Positions 14,499 through 62,819 of a stretch of DNA of 64,000 nt are shown in pieces. Made by a program: the position numbers and the translations under genes. Location: positions 71,645 to 135,644 of the forward strand of contig CAZBPG010000001.1 in assembly GCA_964493695.1 (NCBI GenBank). Reading direction: 5' to 3'. Numbering within the stretch: position 1 is the first letter of the stretch; each line of letters starts with the position of its first letter. Below the pieces are notes generated by a model that had not been told where the DNA came from, ran no database searches, and saw only the letters and a program-made list of their open reading frames with translations. The stretch comes from an uncultured Chitinophaga sp. (GTDB lineage: Bacteria; Bacteroidota; Bacteroidia; Chitinophagales; LD1).

Positions 14499-14519
14499 AG
14501 TAATTTTAGATTTTAGAAG

Positions 14520-18544: not shown

Positions 18545-18860
18545 CAGACCTGTCAGCGGCTTTCCGCCTTAGCGGGAAAGGTCATACAGGTCTGCAGGGA
18601 TGATACCGGAATTCCGCTATATACCTTTCAGGTCTGGTAATGGCTGTCCGCTAACGCGGGAAGAGTCATGCAGGTCTGGAGGGATGATACCGGCATAGCG
18701 GTATAAACCCGACAGGTCAGACGGGATGATAGCGGAATCCCGCTATAAACCATACAGGTCTGGTAGCGGCTGTCCGCTAAAGCGGGGAGGCTCATACAGG
18801 TCTGCAGGGATGATAGCAGAATGCCGCTATAAGCCCGTTTGGTCTGTAAACAGGTACCTT
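18545..18860. repeat. 42-bp tandem array, about 7.5 units, with two alternating hairpin-containing unit types
   Basis: CAGGTCTG-like unit starts occur at 18545, 18587, 18629, 18671, 18713, 18755, 18797 and 18839, spaced exactly 42 nt apart. Confidence 0.9.
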
Positions 18861-19375: not shown

Positions 19376-19470
19376 AATGTTTTGTTTACAGCCAAGATAA
19401 AAACAAAATAAAAAAGTGGAAGGGTGGGGCTTTTACTTACTTTTATGGAAAGGAATTTTATGAAATGGGT
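19331..19470. repeat. Duplicated divergent-promoter/leader block, copy 1
   Basis: Aligns by eye to 53762-53897, with shared strings tgtttacagccaagataaaaacaaaa and ggaagggtggggcttttacttacttttatg. Confidence 0.85.
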
Positions 19471-20335
19471 TTACCGGTGTATGCTTCCTGTTCTTCTTTT
19501 GCTTTCTGCTGAAGCAAAATCGCAGGCGTATGTTTATCATCCTTTTCCGGATTCGAATTTTACATGGAAAGGGTATACTGCATGTATTGGTGGTGGCGGT
19601 CATTGGTCATGTAATATACGAGGCGACACTCTCATCAACGGCATAACTTATAAAAACATTGGGAATATCGCTAGTATTTTGTTTATGGGTAGTATTCGTG
19701 TAGATACCAGTAAGAAAGTTTTTTTCTACAACTACAAGGAGTATGTAAACCACGAACGACTTTTGTATGATTTTTCATTTTCGGTTGGAGACACAATTTC
19801 CTCTTTGGCTACCGGAGAATTGTTGAATGTGTATCTTGTAGATACTCCAAGCTACTTTGGTATACCTAGAAGAACCTTACATTTAAGGACTGCCGGGGGA
19901 GCGGATAAAGACAAATGGATTGAAGGTGTTGGAAGTCATTTGGGTCCCTTAAGTTTATCAAAAGTTTCCCCGGGATATTGCGCTTGGTCTTGTTTATGCC
20001 AAGCGTTTGATGATTCACTGTTGGTATTTGAAAGGAATGATTACCTATCAAACTTGTGTTTCCCAACTTCTTCAATATTGGAAGTAAAGGGTTTATACAT
20101 AGTAAAGGTATATCCAAACCCCTCCACCACCTACTTCACTCTCCAGCTCTCCTCATCACCAAGCACGCCAACTCATTTTCAACTTTACGATGCACTCGGC
20201 CGACCGGTGATGCGCGAAGCGATAAATACTGAAACCACTGCCCTGCAACGCGGCAACCTGCCCACCGGTATTTACTTTTGGCAGTTAGAATCAGCAAATA
20301 AAATATTGGGGAGAGGGAAGGTGGTGATGGAGTAA
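19460..20335 (+). CDS. Secreted protein with T9SS C-terminal sorting domain (type A CTD)
   Basis: Signal peptide MKWVYRCMLPVLLLLSAEAKSQA and a C-terminal VYPNPSTTYFTLQL...GIYFWQL CTD signature. The start is moved to the Met preceding the signal peptide. Confidence 0.8.
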   Translation: MKWVYRCMLPVLLLLSAEAKSQAYVYHPFPDSNFTWKGYTACIGGGGHWSCNIRGDTLINGITYKNIGNIASILFMGSIRVDTSKKVFFYNYKEYVNHERLLYDFSFSVGDTISSLATGELLNVYLVDTPSYFGIPRRTLHLRTAGGADKDKWIEGVGSHLGPLSLSKVSPGYCAWSCLCQAFDDSLLVFERNDYLSNLCFPTSSILEVKGLYIVKVYPNPSTTYFTLQLSSSPSTPTHFQLYDALGRPVMREAINTETTALQRGNLPTGIYFWQLESANKILGRGKVVME

Positions 20336-22006: not shown

Positions 22007-23533
22007 ATGCGCAAAAAAATAAAGTCAGCTCTCATCTCCGTTTATTATAAAGATAAACTCGACCTCATTGTAAAAGAACTCGCTAAGCTCGGGGTGAAAA
22101 TTTACAGCACCGGTGGCACTCAAAGTTTTATTGAAGGGCTTGGTGTAAAAGTAACTGCGGTAGAAGACCTTACTTCTTATCCATCTATTTTAGGCGGGAG
22201 AGTAAAAACCCTTCACCCGAAAGTTTTCGGAGGCATTTTAGGAAGAAGAGATAACGCCAGCGACCAAAAAGAAATGGCGCAATACGAAATTCCTGAAATT
22301 GATTTGGTGATTGTTGACCTCTATCCGTTTGAAGAAACGGTGAAAGGCGGAGGAAGTGAAGAAGATATTATTGAGAAGATTGACATTGGCGGAATTTCGC
22401 TCATCCGTGCGGCAGCAAAAAACTTCAACGACACTATTATTGTTTCTACCCGCAACGATTACGAATCGCTTTTAGAATTACTGCAAACAAAAAATGGCGA
22501 AAGCGATTTAGAAGACCGTAAAAAGTTTGCCGCCAAAGCCTTCATGAACTCTTCGCATTACGATACGCTTATCTTTAATTACTTCAATAACGAATTCAAA
22601 TTCGAAGTTTTCAAAAGGAGCGAACTGAATGCAAAGGTGCTTCGCTATGGCGAGAACCCTCACCAACGCGGAGTGTTCTACGGCAATCTTGATGAGATTT
22701 TTGAAATACTAAACGGCAAAGAACTTTCTTACAACAATCTGGTAGATGTAGATGCTTCTATAAATCTCGTAGCTGAATTTTCTGAACCGACTATTGCCAT
22801 CATCAAACACACCAACAGCTGCGGGCTTGCTTCGCGCGAAACTATTGCGGAAGCCTACAAGGCCGCTTTTGCCTGCGATACTACTTCGGCATTTGGTGGT
22901 GTAATTGCCTCTAACCGCAAAATTGATTTGGCAACCGCCAACGAAATGAATTCCCTTTTCTTCGAAGTACTCACTGCACCCGGTTATGATGATGATGCGT
23001 TGGCCGTTTTAAAAAGTAAGAAGAACAGAATTATTATCAGACAACGGACAACGGACAACGGACAACAGAAAATACAGTTCAAAAATTTGCTGAATGGAGT
23101 ATTGACACAAGATGTTGATTCTAAAGCGGAAGGCAAAAGCGAATTCAAAGTAGCTACTGCAAAAGCCCCAGCCGCTACAGAAGTTTCTGATTTAGAGTTT
23201 GCCGTAATTGCCGTTAAGCATTTAAAGAGCAACGGTATTGCGCTCGTAAAAAACAAACAACTCATCGGCAGTAACTGCGGGCAAACATCGCGTGTAGATG
23301 CTTTGCAAAATGCAGTCCGCAAAGCAAAAGAGTTCGGTTTCGATTTAACCGGTGCCGTAATGGCAAGCGATGCCTTCTTCCCTTTTCCCGATTGCGTGCA
23401 GATTTCGCACGAAGCGGGAATAACCGCCATCGCGCAACCGGGTGGCAGTATCAAAGACCAGGACTCCATAGATGCCGCCAACAAAAACAACCAGGCCATG
23501 GTAATGACTGGTGTTAGGCACTTTAAGCACTAA
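22007..23533 (+). CDS. purH: Bifunctional AICAR transformylase / IMP cyclohydrolase
   Basis: 508 aa with an MGS-like N-terminal domain (ALISVYYKDKL...STGGT) and an AICARFT domain ending VMTGVRHFKH. Confidence 0.97.
   Translation: MRKKIKSALISVYYKDKLDLIVKELAKLGVKIYSTGGTQSFIEGLGVKVTAVEDLTSYPSILGGRVKTLHPKVFGGILGRRDNASDQKEMAQYEIPEIDLVIVDLYPFEETVKGGGSEEDIIEKIDIGGISLIRAAAKNFNDTIIVSTRNDYESLLELLQTKNGESDLEDRKKFAAKAFMNSSHYDTLIFNYFNNEFKFEVFKRSELNAKVLRYGENPHQRGVFYGNLDEIFEILNGKELSYNNLVDVDASINLVAEFSEPTIAIIKHTNSCGLASRETIAEAYKAAFACDTTSAFGGVIASNRKIDLATANEMNSLFFEVLTAPGYDDDALAVLKSKKNRIIIRQRTTDNGQQKIQFKNLLNGVLTQDVDSKAEGKSEFKVATAKAPAATEVSDLEFAVIAVKHLKSNGIALVKNKQLIGSNCGQTSRVDALQNAVRKAKEFGFDLTGAVMASDAFFPFPDCVQISHEAGITAIAQPGGSIKDQDSIDAANKNNQAMVMTGVRHFKH
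23038..23072. repeat. Tandem heptamer (CGGACAA)x4-5 inside purH
   Basis: cagacaa cggacaa cggacaa cggacaa cagaaaa, translated as RQRTTDNGQQK. Confidence 0.85.
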
Positions 23534-32230: not shown

Positions 32231-33352
32231 ATGGCAGGCATCTATATTCATATCCCTTTTTGTAAGCAGGCCTGCCATTATTGCAATTTCTATTTCAGCA
32301 CTTCGCTGGGCAATAAAGACAAATTCGTTCAGGCATTGCTGAAAGAAATTGGGTTGAGCAAAGATTACTTAGCGGGCGAAAAAATAGAAACCCTCTATTT
32401 GGGTGGAGGAACACCTTCGCAGTTAAGCATTCAAGATTTAAGGTTGATTACAGATAAACTTCACCTGTATTACGATTTAAGTCAACTGAAAGAATTTACA
32501 ATTGAAACCAATCCTGATGATTTGAAAGAGGAGAAAGGCATTAAAGGAATAGGAACGTTAGGAGTGGACCGTTTTTCCATCGGCATTCAATCTTTTTTTG
32601 ATGAAGATTTAAAATACATGAACCGCGCGCATAATTCCGATGAAGCACTTTCCTCGGTTAAAAGAGTGCAGGATGCCGGTTTTGAAAACATCACGATTGA
32701 TTTAATTTATGGAACTCCCACCATGAATGATGAGAAATGGAAGCAGAACCTTGCCACAGCCTTTTCATTGAACGTTCCGCATATTTCTTCTTACGCTTTA
32801 ACCGTTGAGTCAAAAACATCTTTAGAGAAGAAAATTGCAAAAGGAGAATCGAAACAGGTTGACGAAGAACAATCTGCAAGGCAATTCAAGATGCTGATGA
32901 ACGAAATGCGCATACATGGTTTTGAGCAGTATGAGATTTCAAATTTTGCGCGGAATGGGAAACATGCTGTCCATAATTCCAACTACTGGTTTGGTAAAAA
33001 GTATCTGGGGCTTGGCCCTTCGGCACATTCCTTTAACGGAGTTTCAAGGCGATGGAATGTTTCAAATAATCTGAACTATATCAACAGCATCAACGAAGGC
33101 AAAATTCTTTTTGAGGAAGAGGTGTTGACTGAAGCACAAAAAGTGAATGAGAAAATTATGACTTCACTTCGTACGCAATGGGGCTTAGATATTGCGGAAT
33201 GTGGAACGCGGAACGCGGAATTAATTCAAGAGGGCTCAAAAGAAATTGACCCCACACATTATACGCTTGAAAGCGGAGTTCTTAAATTGACTGACGAAGG
33301 AAAATTGTTTGCCGATTCTATTGCTGCTGCGCTTTTTGTCGAAGAGCAGTAA
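32231..33352 (+). CDS. hemW: Radical SAM heme chaperone HemW (oxygen-independent coproporphyrinogen oxidase-like)
   Basis: 373 aa with CxxxCxxC (CKQACHYC) at the N-terminus and a HemN_C-like tail. Confidence 0.9.
   Translation: MAGIYIHIPFCKQACHYCNFYFSTSLGNKDKFVQALLKEIGLSKDYLAGEKIETLYLGGGTPSQLSIQDLRLITDKLHLYYDLSQLKEFTIETNPDDLKEEKGIKGIGTLGVDRFSIGIQSFFDEDLKYMNRAHNSDEALSSVKRVQDAGFENITIDLIYGTPTMNDEKWKQNLATAFSLNVPHISSYALTVESKTSLEKKIAKGESKQVDEEQSARQFKMLMNEMRIHGFEQYEISNFARNGKHAVHNSNYWFGKKYLGLGPSAHSFNGVSRRWNVSNNLNYINSINEGKILFEEEVLTEAQKVNEKIMTSLRTQWGLDIAECGTRNAELIQEGSKEIDPTHYTLESGVLKLTDEGKLFADSIAAALFVEEQ
33191..33226. repeat. Tandem heptamer (GCGGAAY/GTGGAAC)x4 inside hemW
   Basis: attgcggaat gtggaac gcggaac gcggaat taat, translated as IAECGTRNAELI. 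Confidence 0.75.
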
Positions 33353-33982
33353 TTACTTCCATTCAAATGTTTTCAGCATTTGTTTTACATCGGCTTTTAC
33401 ATAATCAAGCACCGGTGCCATACTGTCGGCATTGGGTGAACTGTAAAAATAAAGTGCTCCGCGAATAAAATGACGATTGCTATCGGTTAGGAAAAACTGA
33501 ACATTACTGGCTGCGTCTCCGCCCAAATCGTAAAGTATCCCGCCAACACCATGTGCGTTATCAATTTTAATCTCGTCAATGTAGTTTGCTTTTTTGGTGT
33601 GCTTAAAAGCCATCTTGTGTGCGTCTTCCACTAAGTGCTCCAGCCTCATCGTATCATTAATGTCCTTGTAAGTAAGATTTACCACTCCGTTAAGCGATGG
33701 GAAGTAAACATTCAGCCAGCATTGGTCGCTTCTCAGTTTGTTTCCAAAATAGGTGGTATCGCGTGATACTTCCGTGTAAACGGGTTTCTCAAATTTAAAC
33801 GGACATTCCTTCGGGTCGTACAATTCATATTTTCTCTCCGGAAAAATTACCCGCGGATATGCCTTTTGTTTGGGAGTGTAATCACCATGACAAGAAGGAA
33901 GGATAACAGATAATAGACAACAGACAACAGACAAAATCCATTTCTGATTTCTGATTTCTGATTTCTGATTTCTAACTCTCAT
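33353..33982 (-). CDS. gldD: Gliding motility lipoprotein GldD
   Basis: 209 aa with a lipobox (LPSC). It shows conserved GldD blocks (YPRV.FPE..Y, LTYK, DAHKM.F.H..KA, FFLTDS..HF.RGALYFY..PN.DS..P) and lies immediately downstream of gldE. Confidence 0.8.
   Translation of the reverse strand: MRVRNQKSEIRNQKWILSVVCCLLSVILPSCHGDYTPKQKAYPRVIFPERKYELYDPKECPFKFEKPVYTEVSRDTTYFGNKLRSDQCWLNVYFPSLNGVVNLTYKDINDTMRLEHLVEDAHKMAFKHTKKANYIDEIKIDNAHGVGGILYDLGGDAASNVQFFLTDSNRHFIRGALYFYSSPNADSMAPVLDYVKADVKQMLKTFEWK
33902..33974. repeat. Two-armed heptamer element at the gldE/gldD junction
   Basis: On the plus strand, (ACAGAYA)x4 at 33902-33935 and (ATTTCTG)x5 at 33940-33974. The arms are about 5/7 complementary per unit. 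Confidence 0.9.
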
Positions 33983-37139: not shown

Positions 37140-37690
37140 GAATGCAATTCACAACCATTTTGGCGAAATCCTCCACCCATTTCGCCCCTATTTTCTTAAA
37201 AAAGGCAATATTTTTTTACAAACAGCCATCATATTTTTATATATATTCAAAAATTATTTACAAATAGCGAATATAATTTCTTATATAATCAATGTATTTT
37301 TTAGTATAGGCAATGTATTTTTACAATAAGCAATAATTAATTTACATTAATCAATAGTATTTCTTCACACAGTCGAAGTATTTTTTCATATAGGCATAAT
37401 TTTTTCGCGTTGGTTCAAAAATATTTCCATTAATCATTACTTTCACACTAAATTAAATCCATAAAACTATGCTTTTCCGAAACCCCGAAAGGGTTGTAAA
37501 CCCTTTCAGGGTTTGCCTACCGCGCAATAATTAAACTCGGAAACGCAAACCCCATTCATGGAACCGGAACCCCCGCGCATGGAGTAGCAAACGCCACACC
37601 TGGAACCGCGAACGCCCCGCACAGTATCGAAAATCACAAACGCAGAACCGGAAACTCCGTACGTAGAAACCCAAACCATACTCCAAAAAA
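37140..37690. repeat. About 26 degenerate tandem units with a strict 21-bp phase (AT-rich T-tract half at 37203-37433, GC-richer GGAACCG-type half at 37539-37685)
   Basis: Unit starts were read at 37203, 224, 245, 266, 287, 308, 329, 350, 371, 392 and 413, and at 37539, 560, 581, 602, 623, 644 and 665. 37539 equals 37203 + 16x21. Confidence 0.8.
37480..37514. repeat. Second copy of the ACCCCGAAAGGGTT hairpin repeat
   Basis: aaaccccgaaagggttgtaaaccctttcagggttt, about 30 of 33 nt identical to 20341-20373. Confidence 0.8.
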
Positions 37691-37751
37691 TTCTAAGTTT
37701 GCGGCCCTTGTATTCAAATCCAAAACCACACTTCTAAAATCTAAAATCAGA

Positions 37752-38804
37752 ATGATTAACGTTCCTCTCCTCAAACAAATCTGCGAAACCCCCGGGGTTC
37801 CCGGCCACGAACAAAAAGTGCGCGAACTTATTCAACGCGAACTCAAAAATATTGCTGATGACATCTATACCGATAATATGGGTAACCTGATAGCGGTAAA
37901 AAAAGGAAAGAGCAGCACCAAAAAAGTAATGGCCGCTGCGCACATGGACGAAATCGGCTTTATCGTTCATCATATTGACGAAAACGGTTTTCTCCGCTTT
38001 CATCCCCTTGGCGGCTTCGACCCTAAAACTTTAACGGCACAGCGCGTAGTAGTTCACGGAAAAAAAGATGTGGTTGGTGTAATGGGCACAAAACCTATTC
38101 ACTTAATGACAGCAGAAGAGCGTGGAAAGCCGCTTCACCTCACCGATTATTTTATTGACCTCGGCATGAGTCGCAAAGAAGTAGTGAAGATTGTGGAGGT
38201 GGGAAATGTAGTAACCCGCGAGCGCGAATTGATTGAAATGGGCGATTGCGTGAACTGCAAAAGTATCGACAACCGGGTAGCGGTTTTTGTTCTGATTGAA
38301 ACACTCCGCGAACTCAAAGGAAAAAATATCCCTTACGACTTCTACGGCATCTTTACCGTGCAGGAAGAAGTGGGTATCCGTGGCGCACAGGTTGCCGCCC
38401 ACCACATTGGTGCCGAATTCAGTTTTTGTATTGATACAACAATAGCTTTTGATACACCCGGTGCAAAACCCGAAGAAATGGTTACTAAACTGGGGGATGG
38501 TGTAGCGATAAAAATTATGGATTCGTCCGCCATCTGCGATTACCGCATGGTGAAGTTTATGAAAGAGCTGGCCGACAAAAACAAAATTAAATGGCAACCG
38601 GAGTTGCTCCCTGCCGGTGGAACCGACACAGCGGGCATGCAGCGCATGGCACCGAACGGAACTATTGCCGGTGCGGTATCTATTCCAACCCGCCACATTC
38701 ATTCCGTAATTGAAATGGCAAACAAAAAAGACATTAAAGGCAACATTGATTTGCTGAAACTTTGCTTGAGCAATCTGGATAAATACGATTGGAGCTTTAA
38801 GTAA
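37752..38804 (+). CDS. M42-family glutamyl aminopeptidase / endoglucanase-like peptidase
   Basis: 350 aa. It has the motifs ETPGVPGHE, AHMDEIGF, DNRVA, VQEEVGIRGA. Confidence 0.9.
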   Translation: MINVPLLKQICETPGVPGHEQKVRELIQRELKNIADDIYTDNMGNLIAVKKGKSSTKKVMAAAHMDEIGFIVHHIDENGFLRFHPLGGFDPKTLTAQRVVVHGKKDVVGVMGTKPIHLMTAEERGKPLHLTDYFIDLGMSRKEVVKIVEVGNVVTRERELIEMGDCVNCKSIDNRVAVFVLIETLRELKGKNIPYDFYGIFTVQEEVGIRGAQVAAHHIGAEFSFCIDTTIAFDTPGAKPEEMVTKLGDGVAIKIMDSSAICDYRMVKFMKELADKNKIKWQPELLPAGGTDTAGMQRMAPNGTIAGAVSIPTRHIHSVIEMANKKDIKGNIDLLKLCLSNLDKYDWSFK

Positions 38805-39766: not shown

Positions 39767-41407
39767 ATGAAGATTGCCCTTGCCCAGTTAAATTATCACG
39801 TAGGAAATTTTGAGGCGAACACGCAGAAAATAATTGCTGCTATCCGCCATGCCGAAAAGCAAAATGCAGAGCTGGTAGTCTTCAGCGAGCTTTGCATCTG
39901 CGGTTATCCTTCCCGCGATTTTTTAGAGTTTGATGATTTCATTAACCAGTGCACAAATGCTTTGAGGGAAATCGCAAAGCACACAGGTAAAGTTGCTGTG
40001 CTCGTTGGTTGCCCTCGTAAAAACCCGGTGAAAGAGGGCAAGGATTTGTTCAACGCTGCATTCTTTCTGTATGAAGGCGAAGTAAAACACATCACCGATA
40101 AAACATTGCTGCCGGTTTACGATGTGTTTGATGAATACCGGTATTTTGAACCGAACAGGAAATTTGAAGTAGTCAGCTTCAAAGGCAAAAAATTAGCCCT
40201 TACCATTTGCGAAGATATCTGGAACGTAGGCAACGACAATCCGCTCTATACCATCTGCCCGATGGATGAATTGATAAAGCAGTCACCGGATATGATTATT
40301 AATCTTTCTGCTTCGCCTTTCAGTTATGTTCAACACGAAGAGCGGATGAAAGTAATCCGCGCCAATGTAGCCCGGTATAAAATTCCGATGGCCTACGTAA
40401 ACCAGGTAGGCGCACAAACCGAATTAATTTTTGACGGAGGAAGTGTAGTGGTGAATGAGAAGGGAGAAGTAGTTGAGCAATTGAAGTTTTTTGAAGAAGA
40501 AATCAGGATTGCGGATTGCGGATTTTCGATTTCGGATTTAGAATTCGAATGCACCAATCCGCAATCCGCAATTTCGCTGATTCACTCCGGATTAGTTCTC
40601 GGCATCCGCGATTACTTCGCCAAGCTCGGTTTTAAAAAAGCAATCCTCGGTTTAAGCGGGGGAATAGATTCTGCTTTGGTTCTCTGTTTGGCAGCCGAAG
40701 CATTAGGAAAAGAGAATGTCATGTCGCTCCTTCTTCCATCCGGTTTTTCATCTGACCATTCTATAGCCGATTCAAAACAACTTTGCGAAAATCTGGGAAC
40801 GAAATACGAAACAGTCCCTATCGAAAATAATTTTCAGGCTTTTATACAAACGCTGAATCCGTTTTTCAAAGACCTTCCGTTCAATGTAGCGGAAGAAAAT
40901 CTACAGGCGCGCGTGCGCGGGGTTTTGCTCATGGCTTTCAGCAATAAATTCGGGTACATTTTGCTCAACACTACCAACAAGAGCGAAGCAGCTGTTGGCT
41001 ACGGAACTTTGTATGGCGATATGTGCGGAGGGTTGGCTGTGTTGGGCGATGTTTACAAAACACAGGTGTATGAACTCGCCAATTACATTAACCGGAACGG
41101 TGAAGTGATTCCCCGGAATATTATTTCAAAGCCCCCGTCCGCGGAGCTTCGCCCCAACCAAAAAGATTCCGATTCGTTGCCTGAGTATGATGTGTTGGAC
41201 AAGGTGCTCTACCAATACATCGAAAAACGCCAGGGCCCCAAAGAACTGACCGCAATGGGTTTTGAAAAAAAATTAGTTGACCGGGTGTTGAAAATGGTTA
41301 ACGGCAGCGAATGGAAACGTTTTCAAACACCGCCCATTCTTCGCGTTTCTCCAAAGGCATTCGGCATGGGGCGCAGAATGAACATTGAAGGGAAGTATCT
41401 CGGTTAA
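39767..41407 (+). CDS. nadE: Glutamine-dependent NAD+ synthetase
   Basis: 546 aa with an N-terminal nitrilase/CN-hydrolase domain and a C-terminal synthetase domain with an SGGIDS P-loop. The linker carries an in-frame palindromic repeat. Confidence 0.95.
   Translation: MKIALAQLNYHVGNFEANTQKIIAAIRHAEKQNAELVVFSELCICGYPSRDFLEFDDFINQCTNALREIAKHTGKVAVLVGCPRKNPVKEGKDLFNAAFFLYEGEVKHITDKTLLPVYDVFDEYRYFEPNRKFEVVSFKGKKLALTICEDIWNVGNDNPLYTICPMDELIKQSPDMIINLSASPFSYVQHEERMKVIRANVARYKIPMAYVNQVGAQTELIFDGGSVVVNEKGEVVEQLKFFEEEIRIADCGFSISDLEFECTNPQSAISLIHSGLVLGIRDYFAKLGFKKAILGLSGGIDSALVLCLAAEALGKENVMSLLLPSGFSSDHSIADSKQLCENLGTKYETVPIENNFQAFIQTLNPFFKDLPFNVAEENLQARVRGVLLMAFSNKFGYILLNTTNKSEAAVGYGTLYGDMCGGLAVLGDVYKTQVYELANYINRNGEVIPRNIISKPPSAELRPNQKDSDSLPEYDVLDKVLYQYIEKRQGPKELTAMGFEKKLVDRVLKMVNGSEWKRFQTPPILRVSPKAFGMGRRMNIEGKYLG
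40506..40576. repeat. Two-armed heptamer palindrome in-frame inside nadE
   Basis: (GGATTNC)x5, then GAATTC, then (AATCCGC)x2-3. A perfect 17-bp stem forms between attgcggattgcggatt (40508-24) and aatccgcaatccgcaat (40556-72). Confidence 0.9.
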
Positions 41408-45598: not shown

Positions 45599-45698
45599 AA
45601 TTTGAGCGAATGTAAAAGTTAAAAGCAAAAGGCATGGGCACGCAGAGGTCACGGAGGAAACAGATTTACACCGGTTCAAAATCCATTTTAATCTGCCC

Positions 45699-48247: not shown

Positions 48248-48324
48248 GAGAAGGGACGAAGGACGAGGGCGAGGGAAGAGGATACGGCTGCTACCCTCGT
48301 CACCCGTCCCTCGCTCTCGTCCCT
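48248..48324. repeat. Two-armed heptamer palindrome (GAGGGAC-type / CCCTCGY-type) in a divergent intergenic region
   Basis: gagaagggacgaaggacgagggcgagggaagagg ... ccctcgtcacccgtccctcgctctcgtccct. The arms are imperfectly complementary. Confidence 0.85.
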
Positions 48325-49073: not shown

Positions 49074-51043
49074 TGAGAGAACGACCATCGACCATTGACC
49101 ATCGGCAAGGCAAACAAGTAAATTTTGCACGCCCGGCAAGGGCGGGTGTTATTTTTATATGGTTAATCGTCTTTGGTCAGTCGTCCTTTGCTCAGCCTAA
49201 AGAAACTCCGCTCATTACGTTCCGCCAAAAACTGCTCCGCGAAAAGCATAACGATAACGTGGAGAAAATAGATTCGTTTGCTAAGCTTCACTTAATGATT
49301 GCCGGCAACATCTACCAAACCGAAAAACATGCGGCTTACGCGTATGATAAAGCCACCGGTAAATACGATTACAAAAGCGAGTTAAAATACATCCAGCCGA
49401 TACTCAACCTGGGCGATGTTACCATTGCCAATCTCAAAACCTCTTTCAGCAACAGCACAAAAAACATGTTCTCCTCGCCCGATGAATTCGGGCTGGCACT
49501 GAAATATTCCGGAGTAAATGTGGCGCTCCATGCCAACGTGCATACTGCCAACATCAGCAAGGCCAATTTAAAACGCACACACGAAGTGCTTGATGGATAT
49601 GATGTTTATCACACCGGTGCTTTCATGGATAACATTCAGCGCAACGGCAACTATCCGCTTATCGTCAACAAAAAGGGTTTTCGGATTGCCGTGCTCAATT
49701 ACACCAACCTCACTTCGCGCCCTTCCGTTTCGCGCGATTTTGTCATCAACGAAATTGACAAAACCACTATTGATAAGGATATGCGCCTCACACACGCCTA
49801 CAAACCGGATTTTACCATCGTTTATTTCGACTGGGGCGCGAACATGCAGGACATTCCCTCCTATGCTCAACAGGAATTGGCGCAATACGTTTTTCAAGCT
49901 GGAGCCAACTTAGTGGTGGGCACACACCCCAATACCCCGATGCGCATTGATATGATGAACTACAGTTATAATGGCGAACTGCGCGAGGGCATCATTGCTT
50001 ATTCTCTCGGAAACCTCATCAGCAGCAACGAAGAAATACGCAACCGCAACGGCTATGTGATTGATATGGAGATTCAGAAAAACAATTTTACCACCGAAAC
50101 CCGTGTAAGCGATTGGGGGGTGATACCCGTTTATAATTATTACGATACTACTTCCGTACGCGGAAAAACCAGCCTGTTCGTTGTGCCTTGCGCTAACGTA
50201 GAAAGCGGAGATATTTTGCCCAACCTCGCATACATTGAAAAGCGAAGGGCAGTGAATAGTGCGTATGAAGTGCGAAAACTGCTGGGCAACGTAGCCGATG
50301 AAATTCAATACAACCTGAACGAACTGATTGTAAACAATGTGGAGGAAAGCATAAATATTACCAATGCTTCGCTTAACAACAAATACAATCCAAAGCGCGA
50401 AGAAGAAGTAAGCCCAAGCGATGCACCCGAACTGCCGGTAGCAACTACCGGCTCTGATAATCCCCCTTCACTGGCATTGCTTTACGAACAACCTGCAGAA
50501 ACAAAAACCACCACACCGGTTGTTACAAAAGCGGAAAAGAAAAGCGAAAAAGAAACCTCGTATTTAACTCAACGGAAAAAAGCAGAGGCGGTTATGGAAG
50601 CGCCAATAATTCCCAAAGAGCCGGTTGCTGAAATTTCAACGGAAAAAGTTTCGGAAAGCGATAACCCAAAAGAGGAAGTGTTAAACCCGAAAGCAAGCAG
50701 TGTGGAAGTTTCTTCGCATGAGGCAACAAAAATTTCCACCGGTGCAAATGGCGGCCTCACAGGAAATGTAGAAATGACCAAGGCAAAAAATTTGGAGTTA
50801 CAGGTTGATACGTTTTACCGCATTCAGTTCTATGCGCTTAAAACTTTTATCCCGCTGGATACTAATTACTATACCCACCTGAAAGGTTACGAGGTGCGGG
50901 TAGAAGAGGGTTTATATAAATACATGCTGGGCATGTACAGAAGTTTTAAGGAGTGTGAAACATACTGGAAAAGCCAGATACAGCCGCGCTACAAACAAAG
51001 CTTTATAGTTAAATTTATCGATGGAAAAAGAGTGGTAAGATGA
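49073..51043 (+). CDS. CapA-family (PGA_cap metallophosphatase-like) protein fused to a C-terminal SPOR domain
   Basis: About 656 aa. The CapA-like region spans roughly residues 60-400, followed by a low-complexity Pro/Glu/Lys linker and a SPOR-like end (FYRIQFYALK...YKYMLGMYRSFKECE). Confidence 0.7.
   Translation: MRERPSTIDHRQGKQVNFARPARAGVIFIWLIVFGQSSFAQPKETPLITFRQKLLREKHNDNVEKIDSFAKLHLMIAGNIYQTEKHAAYAYDKATGKYDYKSELKYIQPILNLGDVTIANLKTSFSNSTKNMFSSPDEFGLALKYSGVNVALHANVHTANISKANLKRTHEVLDGYDVYHTGAFMDNIQRNGNYPLIVNKKGFRIAVLNYTNLTSRPSVSRDFVINEIDKTTIDKDMRLTHAYKPDFTIVYFDWGANMQDIPSYAQQELAQYVFQAGANLVVGTHPNTPMRIDMMNYSYNGELREGIIAYSLGNLISSNEEIRNRNGYVIDMEIQKNNFTTETRVSDWGVIPVYNYYDTTSVRGKTSLFVVPCANVESGDILPNLAYIEKRRAVNSAYEVRKLLGNVADEIQYNLNELIVNNVEESINITNASLNNKYNPKREEEVSPSDAPELPVATTGSDNPPSLALLYEQPAETKTTTPVVTKAEKKSEKETSYLTQRKKAEAVMEAPIIPKEPVAEISTEKVSESDNPKEEVLNPKASSVEVSSHEATKISTGANGGLTGNVEMTKAKNLELQVDTFYRIQFYALKTFIPLDTNYYTHLKGYEVRVEEGLYKYMLGMYRSFKECETYWKSQIQPRYKQSFIVKFIDGKRVVR
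49082..49186. repeat. Two-armed heptamer element at the start of the CapA-SPOR gene
   Basis: (CGACCAT)x3 at 49082-49104. The second arm atggtta atcgtct ttggtca gtcgtcc at 49159-49186 is about 5-6/7 complementary per unit. Confidence 0.7.
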
Positions 51044-51756
51044 ACCTTGCTGTTGACATCGGAAACACACAGGTAAAATTCGGCTTGTTCGAAAAGGACG
51101 AAGCGGTTGAATTTGGCTTTGGCGAAACTGCGCTGAAAGAACTTCTTTCCCGTCACAAGATTGATAATGCTATTCTTTCTAAAACCGGTTCAAACGATAG
51201 TATAGAGCGCAAACTGAACGGGGAAAATATCCGCACCTTTTTTCTTTCCACCGGGCTAAAGCTTCCGGTAAAAATTCTTTACAAAACACCTGAAACACTC
51301 GGGGCAGACCGGATTGCCGGAAGCACAGCTGCCTGTTTTCTATACCCTGAAAAAAATGTGCTGAAAATTGATTTCGGCACTTGTATCACTTACGATTTTG
51401 TAAACGAAAAGGCGGAATATCTCGGGGGCTCTATTGCCCCTGGCATGATGATGCGGTTTAAATCGCTGCACAATTACACGGCTAAACTGCCTTTAGTTGA
51501 TCCTATGCAGTTTACTTCTTTCGAGTTAACCGGCACCGACACCTCCACTTCCATTTTAAGCGGGGTGGTGAACGGAATAAAAGAAGAGGTGGCCGGCATA
51601 ATAAAAGAATACGAATTGCGTTTTGGAAACCTCACAGTTGTAGCTACCGGTGGCGATGCCCTCTTATTTGTTACTCTGCTCAAATGTGAGATATTTGCCC
51701 GCCCTAATTTAGTGCTGGAGGGTTTGAACCGTATTTTGAATTACAATCTCGAATGA
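51040..51756 (+). CDS. coaX: Type III pantothenate kinase
   Basis: 238 aa. The motifs MNLAVDIGNT, GADR and GTC...D are typical of CoaX. Confidence 0.9.
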   Translation: MNLAVDIGNTQVKFGLFEKDEAVEFGFGETALKELLSRHKIDNAILSKTGSNDSIERKLNGENIRTFFLSTGLKLPVKILYKTPETLGADRIAGSTAACFLYPEKNVLKIDFGTCITYDFVNEKAEYLGGSIAPGMMMRFKSLHNYTAKLPLVDPMQFTSFELTGTDTSTSILSGVVNGIKEEVAGIIKEYELRFGNLTVVATGGDALLFVTLLKCEIFARPNLVLEGLNRILNYNLE

Positions 51757-53081
51757 AAAAACAAGTTGGCAGTTGGCAGTTAGCGGTTGGCAGAGTAATC
51801 GCCCTTGTTGTGTGTCTTTTGCTGCTCGATAGTCAACTCTCAATAGGCCAGGCATCTTCTCCATATTCCCGGTTTGGCCTGGGCTATATTCACTCTCCGG
51901 TTTTTTCGGGCAATAAAGCCATGGGCGAGGTGGCAGCCCCTTACGCCAGCGGAGCAAACATCAATTTCGCCAATCCGGCTTCGTATGCTTCGCTTACGCG
52001 CACTACTATCGAAATTGGAATGAATGTAGAAGGCGCAAAAATCTATGCGCGGGATTCCAACTACACCGCTACACAGGCAGGCATTAACCATTTTGCGCTG
52101 GCTTTTGTGCCTGCGCCTAAGCGAAATAACTATGCTATCAGCATCGGCTTGCTTCCTTACTCGCACATCAACTATACCTTCATTCAGAATTTTAATGACT
52201 CTGCACTTGGCCCGTTTCGTCAGATATACGGTGGCAAGGGTTCTTTGTACCAGGTGTATGCAGGCGGTGCTTATAAAGTGAAAGGTTTTTCTATCGGTGC
52301 AAATCTCGGATTCCTCTTCGGTAAGTTAGATTATCAAAAGACCATCACTTTCCCTGATTCGCTTTATGCAAACACCACGCGTAACATCACCAGCATGAAT
52401 GTGAAAAGTTTTGTTTACACGGTTGGCGTACAATATCAGCGGCTGATTTTTCACAGCAGTAACGACCCCGATGCGCGGACAGATATCTTCATGACTCTGG
52501 GGGCTTATGGTTCGGGCGGAATGAAAATGCAGGCAAAACTTTCCAACTATTGGGACCGGTACACTATTGACCCTCTGCTGGGAGTTCTGGCAGATACGGT
52601 AGCGGCTAATTTCAATCAAAAAGCAAGCGTGAATCTTCCATTTAACATCGGGGCCGGTGTAATGTTCGGCAACGAACGCTACTGGATGCTGGGAACCGAC
52701 TTCAAGTTTATGAACTGGGAAAAGTATTCTTCTCCGTTGAACAACGGCAATTTGAGCAATAGCTGGAGAATTTCGTTTGGCGGACAGATAACACCGAAGT
52801 TTGATGAAGTAGACAAGAAAAAGTATTTAAGCAAAGTGCAGTACCGTGCCGGAGTTTATTATGGCAAAAGCGAAGTTAATTTCAATGGAAACCAGTTGAG
52901 TGAAGTGGGCGGAACTATAGGATTAGGATTTCCGTTTAAATCAGTGGCCCGCTTAAACCTTACCGGTGATTTTGGTTCGCGTGGCGGAAGCGATAAAACA
53001 ACTATCCGCGAAACCTATTATCGCATTACCTTCGGCTTTGTGTTAAACGATATCTGGTTTATCAAACGCAAATTCGATTAA
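51753..53081 (+). CDS. Outer membrane beta-barrel protein of unknown function (conserved coaX-lptC neighbourhood)
   Basis: 442 aa with a signal-like N-terminus, Gly/aromatic-rich beta-strand periodicity and a C-terminal KRKFD. Confidence 0.5.
   Translation: MKKQVGSWQLAVGRVIALVVCLLLLDSQLSIGQASSPYSRFGLGYIHSPVFSGNKAMGEVAAPYASGANINFANPASYASLTRTTIEIGMNVEGAKIYARDSNYTATQAGINHFALAFVPAPKRNNYAISIGLLPYSHINYTFIQNFNDSALGPFRQIYGGKGSLYQVYAGGAYKVKGFSIGANLGFLFGKLDYQKTITFPDSLYANTTRNITSMNVKSFVYTVGVQYQRLIFHSSNDPDARTDIFMTLGAYGSGGMKMQAKLSNYWDRYTIDPLLGVLADTVAANFNQKASVNLPFNIGAGVMFGNERYWMLGTDFKFMNWEKYSSPLNNGNLSNSWRISFGGQITPKFDEVDKKKYLSKVQYRAGVYYGKSEVNFNGNQLSEVGGTIGLGFPFKSVARLNLTGDFGSRGGSDKTTIRETYYRITFGFVLNDIWFIKRKFD
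51765..51792. repeat. Tandem heptamer (GTTGGCA)x4 at the coaX / OMP gene junction
   Basis: gttggca gttggca gttagcg gttggca, translated as VGSWQLAVGR. Confidence 0.9.
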
Positions 53082-53082
53082 G

Positions 53083-53685
53083 GTGAAAGCCCAAAGCTCA
53101 AAGCCCAAAGCCCAAATAAAACCCGTTTCGCGTTTTTTATTTTGCTTTTGCCTTTTGCCTTTTGCGCTTTGCCTTTTACTCTCCTCCTGCAAAAACTCTC
53201 TTGAAGAAGCCAGGCTGATTGTATCGCGCGCTAACGTGAATATTGAAAAGGGCAAAGATGTAGAAATCAATTATTCGGATAATGGGGTGGTGCGCATTAA
53301 AGCATCGGGCCCTACGGCTACCCGGTTTAATTCCGAAAAACCTTACCTCGAATTTTCGGACGGCATAAAGATTCTCTTTTACAATGCTGCTCACCAAATA
53401 GAAAGCACGCTCACCGCAAAACATGCTACTGCGGTAGAAAACAGCCATTCCATGACGGCCCGCGACAGTGTGGTGGTGGTAAACGACAAAGGCGATGTAT
53501 TGAACACGGATGAGTTGATTTGGGATGAGGAGAAAAAAATAATTTACAGCAACTCGTTTGTAAAAATCTCTACTGACGATGAAATTATTTACGGTAACGG
53601 CATGATTGCCAACGAAAATTTTTCCGACTACACCATTAAGCACATTACCGGAAAGATTAAAGTGAAAACAAGTGAGCTGGAGTAG
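53083..53685 (+). CDS. lptC: LptC-like LPS export periplasmic protein (lipoprotein form)
   Basis: 200 aa with a lipobox (LSSC) and OstA/LptC-like beta-jellyroll repeats (LEFSDGIKILFYN...DELIWDEEKKIIYSNSFVKI). Confidence 0.65.
   Translation: MKAQSSKPKAQIKPVSRFLFCFCLLPFALCLLLSSCKNSLEEARLIVSRANVNIEKGKDVEINYSDNGVVRIKASGPTATRFNSEKPYLEFSDGIKILFYNAAHQIESTLTAKHATAVENSHSMTARDSVVVVNDKGDVLNTDELIWDEEKKIIYSNSFVKISTDDEIIYGNGMIANENFSDYTIKHITGKIKVKTSELE
53086..53177. repeat. Two-armed heptamer element at the OMP / lptC-like junction
   Basis: (AAAGCCC)x4 at 53086-53120 and (TTTTGCC)x5 at 53140-53177. Confidence 0.9.
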
Positions 53686-53761: not shown

Positions 53762-53806
53762 TTAATCGCCCGATTTAATTATACGGTTGTGCAGGTGTAT
53801 AGCCAT
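53762..53806 (-). pseudogene. 14-codon 5' remnant (MAIHLHNRIIKSGD*) of a paralogue of the 18929-19375 gene
   Basis: Aligns to MAIYFHNTLLPSGDY of the intact copy. It lies inside the duplicated divergent-promoter block and is followed 5 nt later by a CGCAGGGTC hairpin repeat. Confidence 0.6.
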
Positions 53807-53897
53807 AGCGTTTTGTTTACAGCCAAGATAAAAACAAAAAAACGGAAGGGTGGGGCTTTTACTTACTTTTATGAAAAGGGATTTTATGAGGAAGGTT
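53762..53897. repeat. Duplicated divergent-promoter/leader block, copy 2
   Basis: See copy 1. It includes the truncated 14-codon remnant and the 5' leader of the second T9SS gene. Confidence 0.85.
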
Positions 53898-54788
53898 TGC
53901 CTTTTTCTGTTGGTAGGGTTCTTATGGTTGAAGGGCTCTTCTCAACCAGAGAAGAAGTTTGCTGATTCCACCTCACAATGGACTGTTTTGGCAAGCGGTT
54001 GGAGTTTTGACTGGGGGGCTTATCAATACAGACTTTTCTATTCAGTTACAGGAAATACAATTATTAGTAACCGCGAATACCAAGTAATTAGCGAATCTAC
54101 AGATAATACACGGACAAGATTTATCAGAATGGATTCATTAGGTAGAGTTTGGATGCTTATCCCTAACGATACATTTGAATACCCGCTTTACGATTTTCAA
54201 AAAATTTCGGGAGATACTTTTTATTCTACCGTAGATGAATTTGTTAATTGGAAAGATTCCTTGTGTGTTATTGTTGACTCAGTTGATTCCCTGTATTTAG
54301 ATAAGTGGAGGGCAAGGATGTTTGTACACGGTCAAACATTGCATAATAGCGGTTGTCAATGTCAGAATGATGTATTGGTTGAAGGTATAGGCTCTCTAAA
54401 CAAATACTTGTTTGGTCCTTTATGTAATCTGGCATCTACCGATGACGTAACCTTTGATCTACTCTGTTATCAAGAGCATGGTCAGTTACTTTATGTGAAC
54501 CCAATGCACAACAACTGCATATTAGGGATTGAGAATGATGGAGTAGAATATGGTTTTCAAATTTTCCCCAACCCCTCCACCACCTCCTTCACCCTCCAAC
54601 TCTCTTCACCTCTCACCGCACAAACCTATTTTCAACTTTACGATGCACTCGGCCGACCGGTGATGCGCGAAACGGTAAATACTGAAACCACCACCCTGCA
54701 ACGCGGCAACCTGCCCACCGGTATTTACTTTTGGCAGTTGGTGCAAGGCAATAAAATATTGGGGAGAGGGAAGGTGGTGATGGAGTAA
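53886..54788 (+). CDS. Secreted protein with T9SS C-terminal sorting domain (paralogue of 19460-20335)
   Basis: Signal peptide MRKVCLFLLVGFLWLKGSSQ. The CTD IFPNPSTTSFTLQL...GIYFWQL is nearly identical at the nucleotide level to the other copy. Confidence 0.8.
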   Translation: MRKVCLFLLVGFLWLKGSSQPEKKFADSTSQWTVLASGWSFDWGAYQYRLFYSVTGNTIISNREYQVISESTDNTRTRFIRMDSLGRVWMLIPNDTFEYPLYDFQKISGDTFYSTVDEFVNWKDSLCVIVDSVDSLYLDKWRARMFVHGQTLHNSGCQCQNDVLVEGIGSLNKYLFGPLCNLASTDDVTFDLLCYQEHGQLLYVNPMHNNCILGIENDGVEYGFQIFPNPSTTSFTLQLSSPLTAQTYFQLYDALGRPVMRETVNTETTTLQRGNLPTGIYFWQLVQGNKILGRGKVVME

Positions 54789-61530: not shown

Positions 61531-62819
61531 GAAAATTAAAAGTTAAAAGTCAAAAGCTAAAAGTTAATGGCCTGATACTGCTGTTATCTTGTGTCTTGTG
61601 TCTTGTGTCCGTAATCTCTCTCGCTCAAACTTCTGCCAAGTTAAAGAAAGAGCAACTGCAGCAGCAGATGAAAAAACTGCAGGATGAGATTAAGACCATC
61701 GAAGCCGCTATCAAGAGCAACAGCGCGAAAAAACAAAAGAGCATGAGCGAGATTCTCTCACTGCAGGCTAAAATAAAATCGCGCGAAAACCTGATTGGCA
61801 ACATCAACAACCAGATTGGTGATTTAGATGAAAACATTGGCGAAACACAGGTGGCCATTGCAAAGAAAGCTGACGAGGTGGAGCAAATGAAAACAGAGTA
61901 TGCCGAAATGCTCCGCAAAAGCTACCGGAACATTGCCCTGCAAAATCAGGTGGTGTTTCTGCTTTCTTCCAATTCGTTTTACGATGCCATACGCAGATAC
62001 AATTACCTGCTGAAAGTTGCCGAGTACAGGAGAGGTCAGGCAAAAACGATTCAAAAAACTATTGGCGAACTGGAAGTAAAAAAAGAAGACCTGCTGGAGA
62101 ACAAACACGAGAAAGAAGATTTACTGGTAAAACAAACCGCGCAGAAAAAGGAACTGGAAAACGAACGAAAGCAAAAAGATGCTGCGGTGGCTTTGTTGCT
62201 GGAGAAAGAAAAAAAACTGCGCAGGTCGCAACAGGAAAAAAACAAAGCGGTGGCACAACTCAACAACCGCATTCAGACAATTATTGAAGAAGAGATTCGG
62301 CTGGCACGCGAAGCGGCTAAGAGAAATGCCGGTAGCACCAAAGACGTAGCTGTAAAAAAAGGAAGCAACGAAACCATGCCGCTTACACCGGCAGAGCAAG
62401 CACTGTCGAAAGATTTTTCGAACAACCAGGGCAAGTTGCCGTGGCCGGTGGTGCGGGGGCATATTGTTTCGCGTTTCGGCAAGCATGAGCATCCGGTGCT
62501 GAAAGGAGTGGTGATTGAAAACAACGGAGTGGATATTAAAACCGAAGCCGGTTCGGAGGCGCGCGCCCTGTTTGGTGGAACGGTGGCGAGTGTGTTTTAT
62601 TTACCCACCACACAAAATTGTGTGATTGTAAAACACGGTGAGTTTTTTACCGTGTATTCCAACATCGAAAATGTAGCGGTAAAGACCGGTCAGGCTTTAA
62701 CTACTAAACAGTCGCTCGGGAAACTGCACACCGATAAAAACGAAGACCTCACTAAGGTGCACCTCGAAATCTGGAAAGGAAAAGATAAGATGGACCCGCA
62801 GGGTTGGCTGGCGAATTGA
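61527..62819 (+). CDS. M23-family peptidase with long N-terminal coiled coil (EnvC-like murein hydrolase activator)
   Basis: 430 aa with about 250 aa of coiled coil followed by a LytM/M23 domain (GVDIK...VKHGEFFTVYSNI...HLEIW). Confidence 0.85.
   Translation: MRKLKVKSQKLKVNGLILLLSCVLCLVSVISLAQTSAKLKKEQLQQQMKKLQDEIKTIEAAIKSNSAKKQKSMSEILSLQAKIKSRENLIGNINNQIGDLDENIGETQVAIAKKADEVEQMKTEYAEMLRKSYRNIALQNQVVFLLSSNSFYDAIRRYNYLLKVAEYRRGQAKTIQKTIGELEVKKEDLLENKHEKEDLLVKQTAQKKELENERKQKDAAVALLLEKEKKLRRSQQEKNKAVAQLNNRIQTIIEEEIRLAREAAKRNAGSTKDVAVKKGSNETMPLTPAEQALSKDFSNNQGKLPWPVVRGHIVSRFGKHEHPVLKGVVIENNGVDIKTEAGSEARALFGGTVASVFYLPTTQNCVIVKHGEFFTVYSNIENVAVKTGQALTTKQSLGKLHTDKNEDLTKVHLEIWKGKDKMDPQGWLAN
61532..61610. 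repeat. Two-armed heptamer element at the DUF4292 / M23 peptidase junction
   Basis: (TTAAAAG/TCAAAAG/CTAAAAG)x4-5 at 61532-61567 and (TCTTGTG)x3 at 61587-61610. Confidence 0.9.

Follow-up and report, generated by a model that had tools for sequence, protein, structure and literature searches.

Heptanucleotide repeat arrays as the probable origin of the LptC signal peptide in an uncultured Chitinophagales bacterium

The lptC locus and its two heptamer arrays

The stretch of DNA analyzed here (hereafter, the window) comprises 64,000 nucleotides of contig CAZBPG010000001.1 (positions 71,645–135,644, forward strand) from the assembly GCA_964493695.1 of an uncultured Chitinophaga sp. The study was centered on an open reading frame (ORF) for an LptC-like protein, lptC, which begins with two arrays of 7-nt repeats. 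Its translation, MKAQSSKPKAQIKPVSRFLFCFCLLPFALCLLLSSCKNS..., was identical to the reading made earlier from the sequence letters (the original prediction). The Pfam search placed the product in the LptC family, with 36.7 bits over residues 61–186 (curated cut-off, 21; E = 4.2e-9). The gene starts with GTG beside the stop codon of the preceding ORF, whose terminal motif AAATTCGATTAA (K-F-D-stop) is kept in orthologues. This position of the start codon and the two heptamer runs behind it, both described in the original prediction, were confirmed by the sequence and by Tandem Repeats Finder. Coordinates of all features are collected in Table 1.

The first array (arm 1) encodes KAQSSKPKAQ, is read in all three frames, and forms a positively charged n-region; its sole variant unit carries T at 53098. 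The unit of this arm, read as KAQSPKP, is stop-free and hydrophilic (hydropathy rank 1407 of 1608). The second array (arm 2) encodes FCFCLLPFALCLL, a hydrophobic h-region; its unit contains no A, is stop-free, and translates into LLPFAFC (rank 48 of 1608). A signal peptidase II-type signal peptide was recognized by a charged n-region, an h-region of about 7–22 residues, and a lipobox of the form [LVI][ASTVI][GAS]C. The LptC precursor, which reads MKAQSSKPKAQIKPVSRFLFCFCLLPFALCLLLSSC and continues with KNS..., has this layout: positive charges at K2, K7, K9, K13, and R17, the h-region F18–L32, and the lipobox L33-S34-S35-C36. The lipobox Cys was conserved in at least 90% of 50 LptC homologues, while residues N-terminal to it were not alignable. 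The K/Q-rich n-region, Leu/Phe/Cys h-region, and LSSC lipobox that had been proposed for this protein are thus upheld by the Pfam match, the conserved Cys, and the open frames of the orthologues described below. Cleavage before Cys36 and its lipidation are predicted from the motif. The 5'-terminal 108 nt of lptC (36 codons, almost entirely arrays) are probably translated as a signal peptide of the signal peptidase II type, the sequence of which was overwritten by two independent 7-nt arrays.

For comparison, we used 80 lptC loci from species-representative genomes, all of them metagenome-assembled genomes of Chitinophagales or other Bacteroidota, many from freshwater. About 20 close orthologues have an upstream gene with the K-F/Y-D-stop end; at −1 to +3 nt from this stop, a start codon opens the reading frame that leads to the lipobox Cys. 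The frame between this start and the Cys is open in these orthologues across 78–132 nt that are unrelated between species. Among 17 distinct N-terminal types, shuffled variable regions stayed open 12–44% of the time, which gives a joint probability of 10^-11.3. After codon 1 of the window lptC, the first in-frame ATG, GTG, or TTG is the TTG at codon 25. Distant relatives have an untranslated spacer of 15–59 nt and a signal peptide of 18–30 codons (e.g., MQKLLFVCFFLSLILSGC; 45 codons in the outlier L028). The distance from the upstream stop to the Cys is nevertheless similar in distant and close relatives (81–161 nt vs. 85–139 nt), which suggests that the former spacer became a part of the ORF in the heptamer-rich clade. 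Taken as comparative evidence, these data support translation of both arms.

One further property of arm 1 was observed. The (AAAGCCC)n array can also be written as tandem CCCAAAG, a slippery heptamer of the X_XXY_YYZ type (53097–53103, + strand), and the variant unit (T at 53098, read C TCA AAG) is the copy that would be in the phase prone to −1 frameshifting. This is a single case and may be due to chance.

Period-7 arrays in the window and in related genomes

Tandem Repeats Finder detected 17 arrays of period 7 in the 64 kb, built from no fewer than 12 different units, and period-7 runs were the most numerous (14 in the window vs. 0–6 for other periods between 4 and 12). Thirteen of the 17 arrays lie within −25 to +105 nt of one of 57 start codons (P = 1e-9). 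Eight genes have N-terminal arrays, and the product of each is an exported or membrane protein, in comparison with 29 of the 57 genes in total (P = 0.004); the eight products are a PI-PLC lipoprotein, a 131-aa protein (p131), GldD, a TauE-family membrane protein, a PGA_cap protein, a 442-aa outer-membrane-type protein, LptC, and an M23 peptidase. GldD and the M23 peptidase have a two-part build like that of LptC. Overall, 14–15 of the 17 arrays are inside ORFs. Absence of translation is certain for only two 2-copy arrays (14503 and 37733) and probable for the one preceding the TauE gene. Four arrays are internal: one in PurH, two in the NadE linker, and one near the C-terminus of a 373-aa ORF. 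With an STRR-like array defined as a 7-nt unit in at least about three copies, at many loci per genome and with several unit types, the window shows head-to-tail copies of several units at many loci, and most of them are not intergenic. Array density was 0.5–3 per 10 kb in close relatives, and most distant relatives had none. Orthologous starts of PGA_cap, outer-membrane protein (OMP), and LptC genes carry arrays in several species.

Table 1. Positions of the lptC features, of other heptamer arrays, and of associated sites in the window
Feature	Position	Strand	Description
Upstream stop TAA	53079–53081	+	Ends outer-membrane-type ORF 51753–53081; left limit of the variable region
lptC start GTG	53083–53085	+	1 nt past the upstream TAA; 200-aa product also in the NCBI record of the genome (P0131)
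lptC ORF, 200 aa	53083–53685	+	Pfam PF06835; 192 homologues, many named LptC at source (JGI, NCBI)
Arm 1, (AAAGCCC)x4.4	53086–53116	+	Tandem Repeats Finder: period 7, 91% matches
Non-repeat spacer	53117–53139	+	Codons I12–L19; R17 closes the n-region
Arm 2, (TTTTGCC)x5.6	53140–53177	+	Rotation of CTTTTGC; Tandem Repeats Finder: period 7, 84% matches
Lipobox L33-S34-S35-C36	53179–53190	+	Cys codon 53188–53190; Cys36, predicted lipidated first residue of mature LptC
p131, (CTTTTGC)x5 in sense	16075–16109	-	(GCAAAAG)x5 on the + strand; 92% matches; in ORF 15733–16128, h-region FTFAFCLLLFAFC
ispB-like leader, claimed degenerate copy	45605–45632	-	About three loose units CCTTTTG CTTTTAA CTTTTAC, 10–32 nt upstream of probable ATG 45597
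GldD	33905–33973	-	(AGAAATC)x5 n-region and (GTCTGTT)x3-4 h-region, then lipobox LPSC
M23 peptidase	61532–61609	+	(AAAGTTA)x5 n-region and (TCTTGTG)x3 h-region
PGA_cap protein	49080–49102	+	(CGACCAT)x3.3 in n-region
442-aa outer-membrane-type protein upstream of lptC	51764–51793	+	(AGTTGGC)x4.3 in n-region
PI-PLC lipoprotein	13123–13140	-	(GTTTGCC)x2.6 in h-region (MKRYVLPFAVCLLMTASC)
PurH ORF 22007–23533	23038–23066	+	(GACAACG)x4 encodes RQRTTDNGQ; variable surface loop
NadE ORF 39767–41407	40506–40572	+	(GGATTGC)x2.7...(CAATCCG)x2.6, perfect inverted pair, in frame, linker between CN_hydrolase and NAD_synthase
373-aa ORF 32231–33352, near 3' end	33194–33220	+	(GCGGAAC)x3.9 encodes AECGTRNAEL at residues ~323–330
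(CTAAAAT)x2, 16-mer TTCTAAAATCTAAAAT	14501–14517	-	4 nt upstream of ATG
(CTAAAAT)x2, identical 16-mer	37732–37748	+	4 nt upstream of ATG
TauE-upstream hairpin	48253–48323	-	Imperfect; GGGACGA-like and TCGTCCC-like units

Since 7 equals 1 modulo 3, successive units of an array fall into different reading frames, all three being used, and the encoded peptide repeats every 7 residues. In the window and close relatives, the units of 30/32 N-terminal arrays are stop-free on the sense strand, compared with 20/32 on the antisense strand and a genomic background of 0.69. The only copy of the M23 array in which TAA would be in frame reads TCA. Among 1608 stop-free heptamer classes, h-region units rank 13–208 by mean hydropathy; four of the five n-region units rank 1242–1504, and AGTTGGC ranks 430 (Mann–Whitney P = 0.0025 for n- vs. 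h-region). The n-region units are A-rich and hydrophilic, and the h-region units are T-rich and mostly devoid of A. Hydrophilic peptides are encoded by an A-rich arm and hydrophobic ones by its complement, as illustrated by metagenome contig L086 (see below).

The CTTTTGC run was said to encode also the signal peptide of p131, and this was the case. The protein has no Pfam family and carries a signal peptidase I-type signal peptide, MKKLHFTFAFCLLLFAFCKA followed by QQ. Its homologues all have a signal peptide of 20–21 residues ending in AQ and followed by Q, so the signal peptide of p131 is real, and the uniform length indicates that the array overwrote an existing h-region without changing its size. 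In the NCBI record of the genome (P0180), p131 is listed as a 100-aa protein and its signal peptide is lost. The query CTTTTGCCTTTTGC (two CTTTTGC units, up to two mismatches) gave 12 matches in comparison with 2.4 ± 1.6 in shuffled sequences, and none of 100 shuffles reached 12. The degenerate copy claimed for the leader of the ispB-like gene did not hold: its three loose units are absent from the CTTTTGC matches even at two mismatches and are indistinguishable from chance.

Within the lineage, all three (CTTTTGC)n runs are in signal-peptide h-regions in the sense orientation. A scan of metagenomes for (CTTTTGC)3 yielded at least 120 contigs, mostly with 55–65% G+C. Of 133 arrays among the matches listed, 43 were without an ORF; at a 5' end or slightly upstream of one, 39 were in sense and 17 in antisense orientation. 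Many of those listed are located in terminator-like palindromes or 5' untranslated regions on contigs of high G+C content. The expected association of sense runs with N-termini of exported proteins is therefore valid inside the lineage; among the metagenome matches listed, most runs are outside coding sequence, and those at gene 5' ends favor the sense orientation (39:17). These mixed contexts rule out (CTTTTGC)n as a signal-peptide-specific motif in all bacteria. The best explanation for the reuse of CTTTTGC in lptC and p131 is convergence on one of the few permitted units. Because only 82 of 2340 heptamer classes reach a mean hydropathy of at least 2.0 across all three frames, sharing of one unit by two of about seven h-region arrays is unremarkable.

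The same scan revealed inverted (GCAAAAG)n...(CTTTTGC)n arrays on unrelated contigs. Among the matches listed, 18 have the A-rich arm first and none the reverse order, with the arms 14–91 nt apart. Examples, mostly of high G+C content (contigs L081–L200), are L140 (2118–2250), L086 (526–632), and L131 (two copies). Several of them have the common flank GAAAATCAAAAG, and some enclose G+C-rich palindromes resembling bidirectional terminators. Two of the 18 elements appear to be translated as n-region plus h-region; in L086, the peptide is MPEGKRQKAKGKRQ...FAFCLLPFAFCLAAQ.

Arrays at orthologous sites differ strongly between species. One cluster of mature LptC sequences with 90% identity combines the heptamer-derived N-termini MQTTDNGQRTT.., MTIDQRPLTI.., MKFEARSPKSEV.., and MKAQSSKPKAQ.. 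(the window, P0131). A 7-aa indel between MNAECGMRNAEVK and MNAEVK corresponds to three units. At the OMP start, the arrays consist of AGTTGGC, ACAGTTT, AGTTTCA, or GGTTACA depending on the species, and the substitutions are common to all units of an array, which is concerted evolution. The PGA_cap arrays likewise differ between species by unit-wide substitutions. In loci L008, L012, and L018, the LptC starts are near-identical, and the PGA_cap n-region arrays (at ~5560–5612) are different, namely (AGACAAG)3, (GACCATT)3, and (ACAGACR)4.5. An array can thus be replaced before a decayed one, ~4.4 kb distant in the same locus, diverges by point mutation. No net insertion was found at the array sites of PurH (vs. 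the solved structure 4ehi), NadE (vs. the solved structure 5kha), and the p131 signal peptide (vs. homologues), all of which have the same length as their counterparts.

Several units of internal arrays were also met in LptC N-termini of other species. The PurH unit GACAACG builds the n-region MQTTDNGQRTT (L003, P0003), and the GCGGAAC family of the 373-aa ORF builds the N-terminus MNAECGMQNAEVK (P0001, P0121, and P0124). The 16-mer TTCTAAAATCTAAAAT precedes two unrelated genes for cytoplasmic proteins, a 95-aa ORF (14211–14498) and ORF 37752–38804; its placement matches the pattern of heptamers just upstream of starts described for TAACTGA repeats (PMC4679880).

Other repeats were noted in the window. 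Intergenic DNA upstream of ORF 37752 (37276–37362 and 37500–37700, +) contains AT-rich repeats of period 21 (3 x 7) with units like ATAAGCAATGTATTTTTTACA, and a GGAAC/CGGAAAC-rich stretch on their 3' side looks like decayed heptamer arrays. The intergenic block 18586–18815 (+) is built of 42-nt units, which form a higher-order repeat of 126 nt (1.8 copies, 84% matches); CAGGTCTG...GGGATGATACCGG...CCGCTATAAACC is frequent in it, and Rfam gave no match. Two paralogous genes of secreted proteins, 19424–20335 and 53850–54788, have a conserved upstream block of ~75 nt, TTTGTTTACAGCCAAGATAAAAACAAAA...GGAAGGGTGGGGCTTTTACTTACTTTTATG (19380–19470 and 53806–53900, +), which may be a common promoter or leader; the maximal ORFs of these paralogues probably start too far upstream. 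The PNPS...GIYFWQL end of the 53850–54788 product is presumably a C-terminal sorting domain of type IX secretion.

Proposed explanation and alternatives

We consider it probable that the arrays result from lineage-specific turnover of heptanucleotide simple sequence repeats, filtered by what a cleaved signal peptide tolerates. According to this scheme, a lineage of Chitinophagales would generate and homogenize 7-nt arrays at a high rate, mostly near translation starts and presumably by replication slippage. The arrays would survive only where translation in all three frames is harmless, i.e., in signal peptides that are cleaved off, in linkers between domains, or in surface loops. The filter would demand stop-free units in the sense strand, hydrophilic and A-rich ones in the n-region, and hydrophobic, T-rich, mostly A-free ones in the h-region; such a filter could account for the appearance of an A-rich arm followed by a T-rich arm and for the recurrence of a few hydrophobic units, including CTTTTGC. 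The ancestor of lptC would have had a short signal peptide preceded by an untranslated spacer of 15–59 nt. In the clade rich in heptamers, initiation would have moved to the upstream stop, so that the old spacer came to be translated as an extended n-region. Translation of the window gene would begin at GTG 53083 directly after the upstream stop, an arrangement suggestive of termination–reinitiation coupling. The (AAAGCCC)n array would supply KAQSPKP and a long n-region with five positive charges, the (CTTTTGC)n array the LLPFAFC h-region, and then LSS and the cleavage site before Cys would follow.

Several observations weigh against this explanation. Translation of the arms was deduced from comparative sequence data. 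An exact 22-mer scan of metagenome contigs revealed no same-species variants, and slippage as the mechanism is our inference. The arms of the window lptC fold better than shuffled sequences (z = −3.3, 1/200 shuffles; z = −2.2 over a longer stretch). True intergenic DNA of the window is nearly array-free, the only exceptions being the (CTAAAAT)x2 arrays that precede two ATGs by 4 nt; purely neutral tolerance does not predict this, and the arrays are thus tied to translation starts or to genes of exported proteins. Unit families recur at non-orthologous loci in both orientations, which hints at exchange between arrays or a unit preference, beyond convergence. The 7-nt period, the near absence of intergenic arrays, the recurrence of units, and the strict polarity of inverted arrays with the A-rich arm first are not explained by filtered repeat turnover and leave room for a function at the RNA level or of a module type.

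Arrays acting primarily as RNA-level signals at translation starts, with their translation being incidental, seem unlikely to us. Possible forms are multivalent sites for a protein that binds single-stranded RNA with a footprint of 6–7 nt (S1 or cold-shock-domain proteins), an unstructured initiation enhancer, or a membrane-targeting tag formed by the U-rich h-region mRNA. The clustering of arrays on both sides of start codons is in line with such signals, as TTCTAAAATCTAAAAT stands 4 nt upstream of two ATGs and n-region arrays begin 1–12 nt after the start; so is the array-free state of true intergenic DNA. For start-proximal heptamers, S1, Csp, or CsrA have been proposed as binders (PMC4679880), a regulatory role was proposed in Nostoc (bioRxiv 10.1101/2022.06.06.494920), and metagenome (CTTTTGC)n runs occur in sense just 5' of real starts, e.g., that of the glycogen synthase gene in L083. 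However, units are wholly different among orthologues and loci, leaving no common binding motif; h-region arrays are 40–95 nt downstream of the start, beyond the initiation footprint; and unit composition follows the needs of the peptide, as seen from the hydropathy ranks and sense stop avoidance, whereas the binders are putative.

RNA structure was considered separately. Orthologous lptC starts folded no better than shuffles in 28/30 cases, with z centered on 0, and the arrays of GldD, M23, and p131 did not fold better than shuffles either. Mean complementarity was 4.4/7 between arms of the same gene and 3.9/7 between arms of different genes (5/7 for the LptC arms). A conserved RNA hairpin between the arms is ruled out by the orthologue z-scores near 0 and by the low complementarity within genes. 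Of the single two-armed element in the original prediction, the arms are real; their pairing is not conserved (z about 0 in 28/30 orthologues). A terminator scan of the lptC element gave no terminator-like site, and an Rfam search gave nothing at E up to 1. Neither conserved base pairing, nor a G+C-rich stem with a trailing U-run, nor a known RNA family was found, and the element does not belong to structured cis-regulatory RNAs, attenuators, or intrinsic terminators.

A slightly more doubtful possibility is that inverted heptamer arrays are ready-made, strand-symmetric signal-peptide modules, which would be made, extended, or replaced under positive selection or by a dedicated system working in a 7-nt register, and not by neutral slippage alone. 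Complementary strands encode opposite hydropathy, and a palindrome with the A-rich part followed by the T-rich part would give an n-region plus h-region on either strand, as in L086 (KRQKAKG...LLPFAFC). The candidate system could be a repeat-generating or an RNA-binding one, e.g., cold-shock-domain proteins acting on U-rich heptamers in mRNAs of exported proteins.

Phase variation at contingency loci similar to opa, in which slippage by one or two units would toggle envelope proteins off and on, is improbable. Such loci classically have a unit not divisible by three near the beginning of the coding sequence for exported or surface proteins (PMC3745409), as is the case here; simple sequence repeats are enriched at N-termini (PMC3315296), and the 3-unit indel shows that copy number changes over evolutionary time. 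The arrays share with opa-type loci the non-triplet repeat in the 5' coding region; out-of-frame polymorphism among close strains was not found. About 20 orthologous loci and seven additional junction contigs contained no out-of-frame allele, all 194-aa members of the MTIDQRPLTI/MSIDPRPLTI type are equal in length, and L008, L012, and L018 are identical in length. In addition, the arrays are short (3–5 units), and the affected genes include the core functions lptC, purH, and nadE and not dispensable antigens. The junction contigs came from different metagenomes and encode LptC products truncated to 161 aa; in 7/7 of them, the upstream frame is open and a start codon stands beside the stop. Frameshifted "off" alleles as the source of the 160–161 aa database entries are thereby ruled out, and the short forms are truncations by gene callers.

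It is still less probable that the arms are the remains of a mobile palindrome, a miniature hairpin made of inverted heptamer arrays, which would have entered the gene in frame as Rickettsia palindromic elements do. True inverted-array hairpins are present in the window, the 5/7 complementarity and folding of the LptC arms fit such an element, and the 18 inverted arrays with the A-rich arm first among the matches listed, two of them apparently translated, fit it as well. The hairpin in the NadE linker has a 19-bp stem (−37.4 kcal/mol, z = −7.0), and that upstream of the TauE gene reaches −45.6 kcal/mol (z = −5.0). The maximal TauE ORF (from TTG 48331) spans the latter hairpin, but Pfam recognizes TauE only from residue 41 onward, and initiation at the in-frame GTG 48235 would give MEIIHLLILF...; this GTG is probably the true start and the hairpin a 5' leader between divergent genes. 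An origin from a mobile element is contradicted by units that differ at every locus, by the lack of shared flanks in the window, by arms of the same gene that are barely more complementary than those of different genes, and by orthologous LptC starts that fold no better than shuffles. Insertion of a mobile cassette is ruled out by the absence of length gain in PurH, NadE, and p131, and neither the conserved sequence nor the extra length of an in-frame mobile palindromic element was found.

Finally, initiation of LptC at the internal TTG (codon 25, 53155) with arm 1 as an untranslated intercistronic spacer, a possibility already raised in the original prediction, is very improbable: in-frame TTG codons do exist in the T-rich arm and some gene callers cut orthologues to 160–161 aa, but such a start would leave the 12-residue MPFALCLLLSSC without a charged n-region, the upstream frames of the truncated database calls are open, and in about 20 orthologues the start codon abuts the upstream stop with a frame open beyond chance (10^-11.3).

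If repeat turnover filtered by the signal peptide holds genome-wide, about one gene in five would have a coding sequence partly written by 7-nt repeats, and orthologues at least 90% identical would carry unrelated signal peptides. The lineage would then represent a natural experiment on the minimal sequence needs of Sec and lipoprotein signals, on the origin of new coding sequence and start codons from intercistronic spacers, and on the driver of the heptamer-repeat excess in bacteria. The repeats also mislead gene callers (LptC of 160–161 aa in many metagenome records, p131 of 100 aa), and as a result, lipoproteins and secreted proteins are mis-annotated as cytoplasmic.

Comparison with known repeat systems

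Heptameric repeats are in excess in bacteria, and a link to the footprint of the polymerase active site has been suggested (PMC4692102); according to the same source, the over-representation of heptamers among long simple sequence repeats is attributed to Mrazek 2007. TAACTGA heptamer repeats are known directly upstream of start codons in Beggiatoaceae, cyanobacteria, and five Bacteroidetes (PMC4679880), and TTTTGAA repeats are located near start codons in Nostoc (bioRxiv 10.1101/2022.06.06.494920). With these repeats (STRR-type, TAACTGA, and Nostoc), the arrays described here have in common the 7-nt unit, several dispersed unit types, 2–6 copies, and the strong association with starts, as well as a patchy, lineage-specific distribution and differences in length and sequence between close relatives. 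The described start-codon heptamers are intergenic, under-represented in ORFs, and often dominated by one unit, and TAACTGA has forward stop codons. In contrast, the arrays of this lineage are mostly in ORFs and lack sense-strand stops; they are translated in each of the three frames and sorted according to the hydropathy of the encoded peptides.

The CTCTT repeats of Neisseria opa genes are similar in being a pyrimidine-rich, non-triplet tandem repeat within the signal-peptide coding region that encodes the hydrophobic core; they are long, vary within populations at ~1e-3 per generation, and switch dispensable adhesins on and off (PMC3745409). The arrays of this lineage, unlike them, have 3–5 units, include core genes, and showed no out-of-frame allele among the loci examined.

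Rickettsia palindromic elements are in-frame palindromic insertions in genes, which form a conserved sequence family and add length. They resemble the present case in that hairpin repeats are tolerated in coding sequence, as in the NadE linker; in the lineage studied here, the units differ per locus and no net insertion was seen. Repeats inside the genes of Borg elements reportedly have unit lengths divisible by three. Like the heptamer arrays, Borg tandem repeats evolve fast, arise in place, and add or rewrite protein sequence under low constraint (PMC9879509). They differ in that they form disordered segments and not targeting signals and belong to an archaeal extrachromosomal element, whereas the unit of this lineage is 7 nt and is read in three frames (PMC9879509 for Borgs).

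Our literature search found no account of signal peptides encoded by heptamer arrays in Bacteroidota. Repeats of this length close to start codons are already known; what appears to be new here, as judged from the sequences, is the translation of heptamer arrays into signal peptides.

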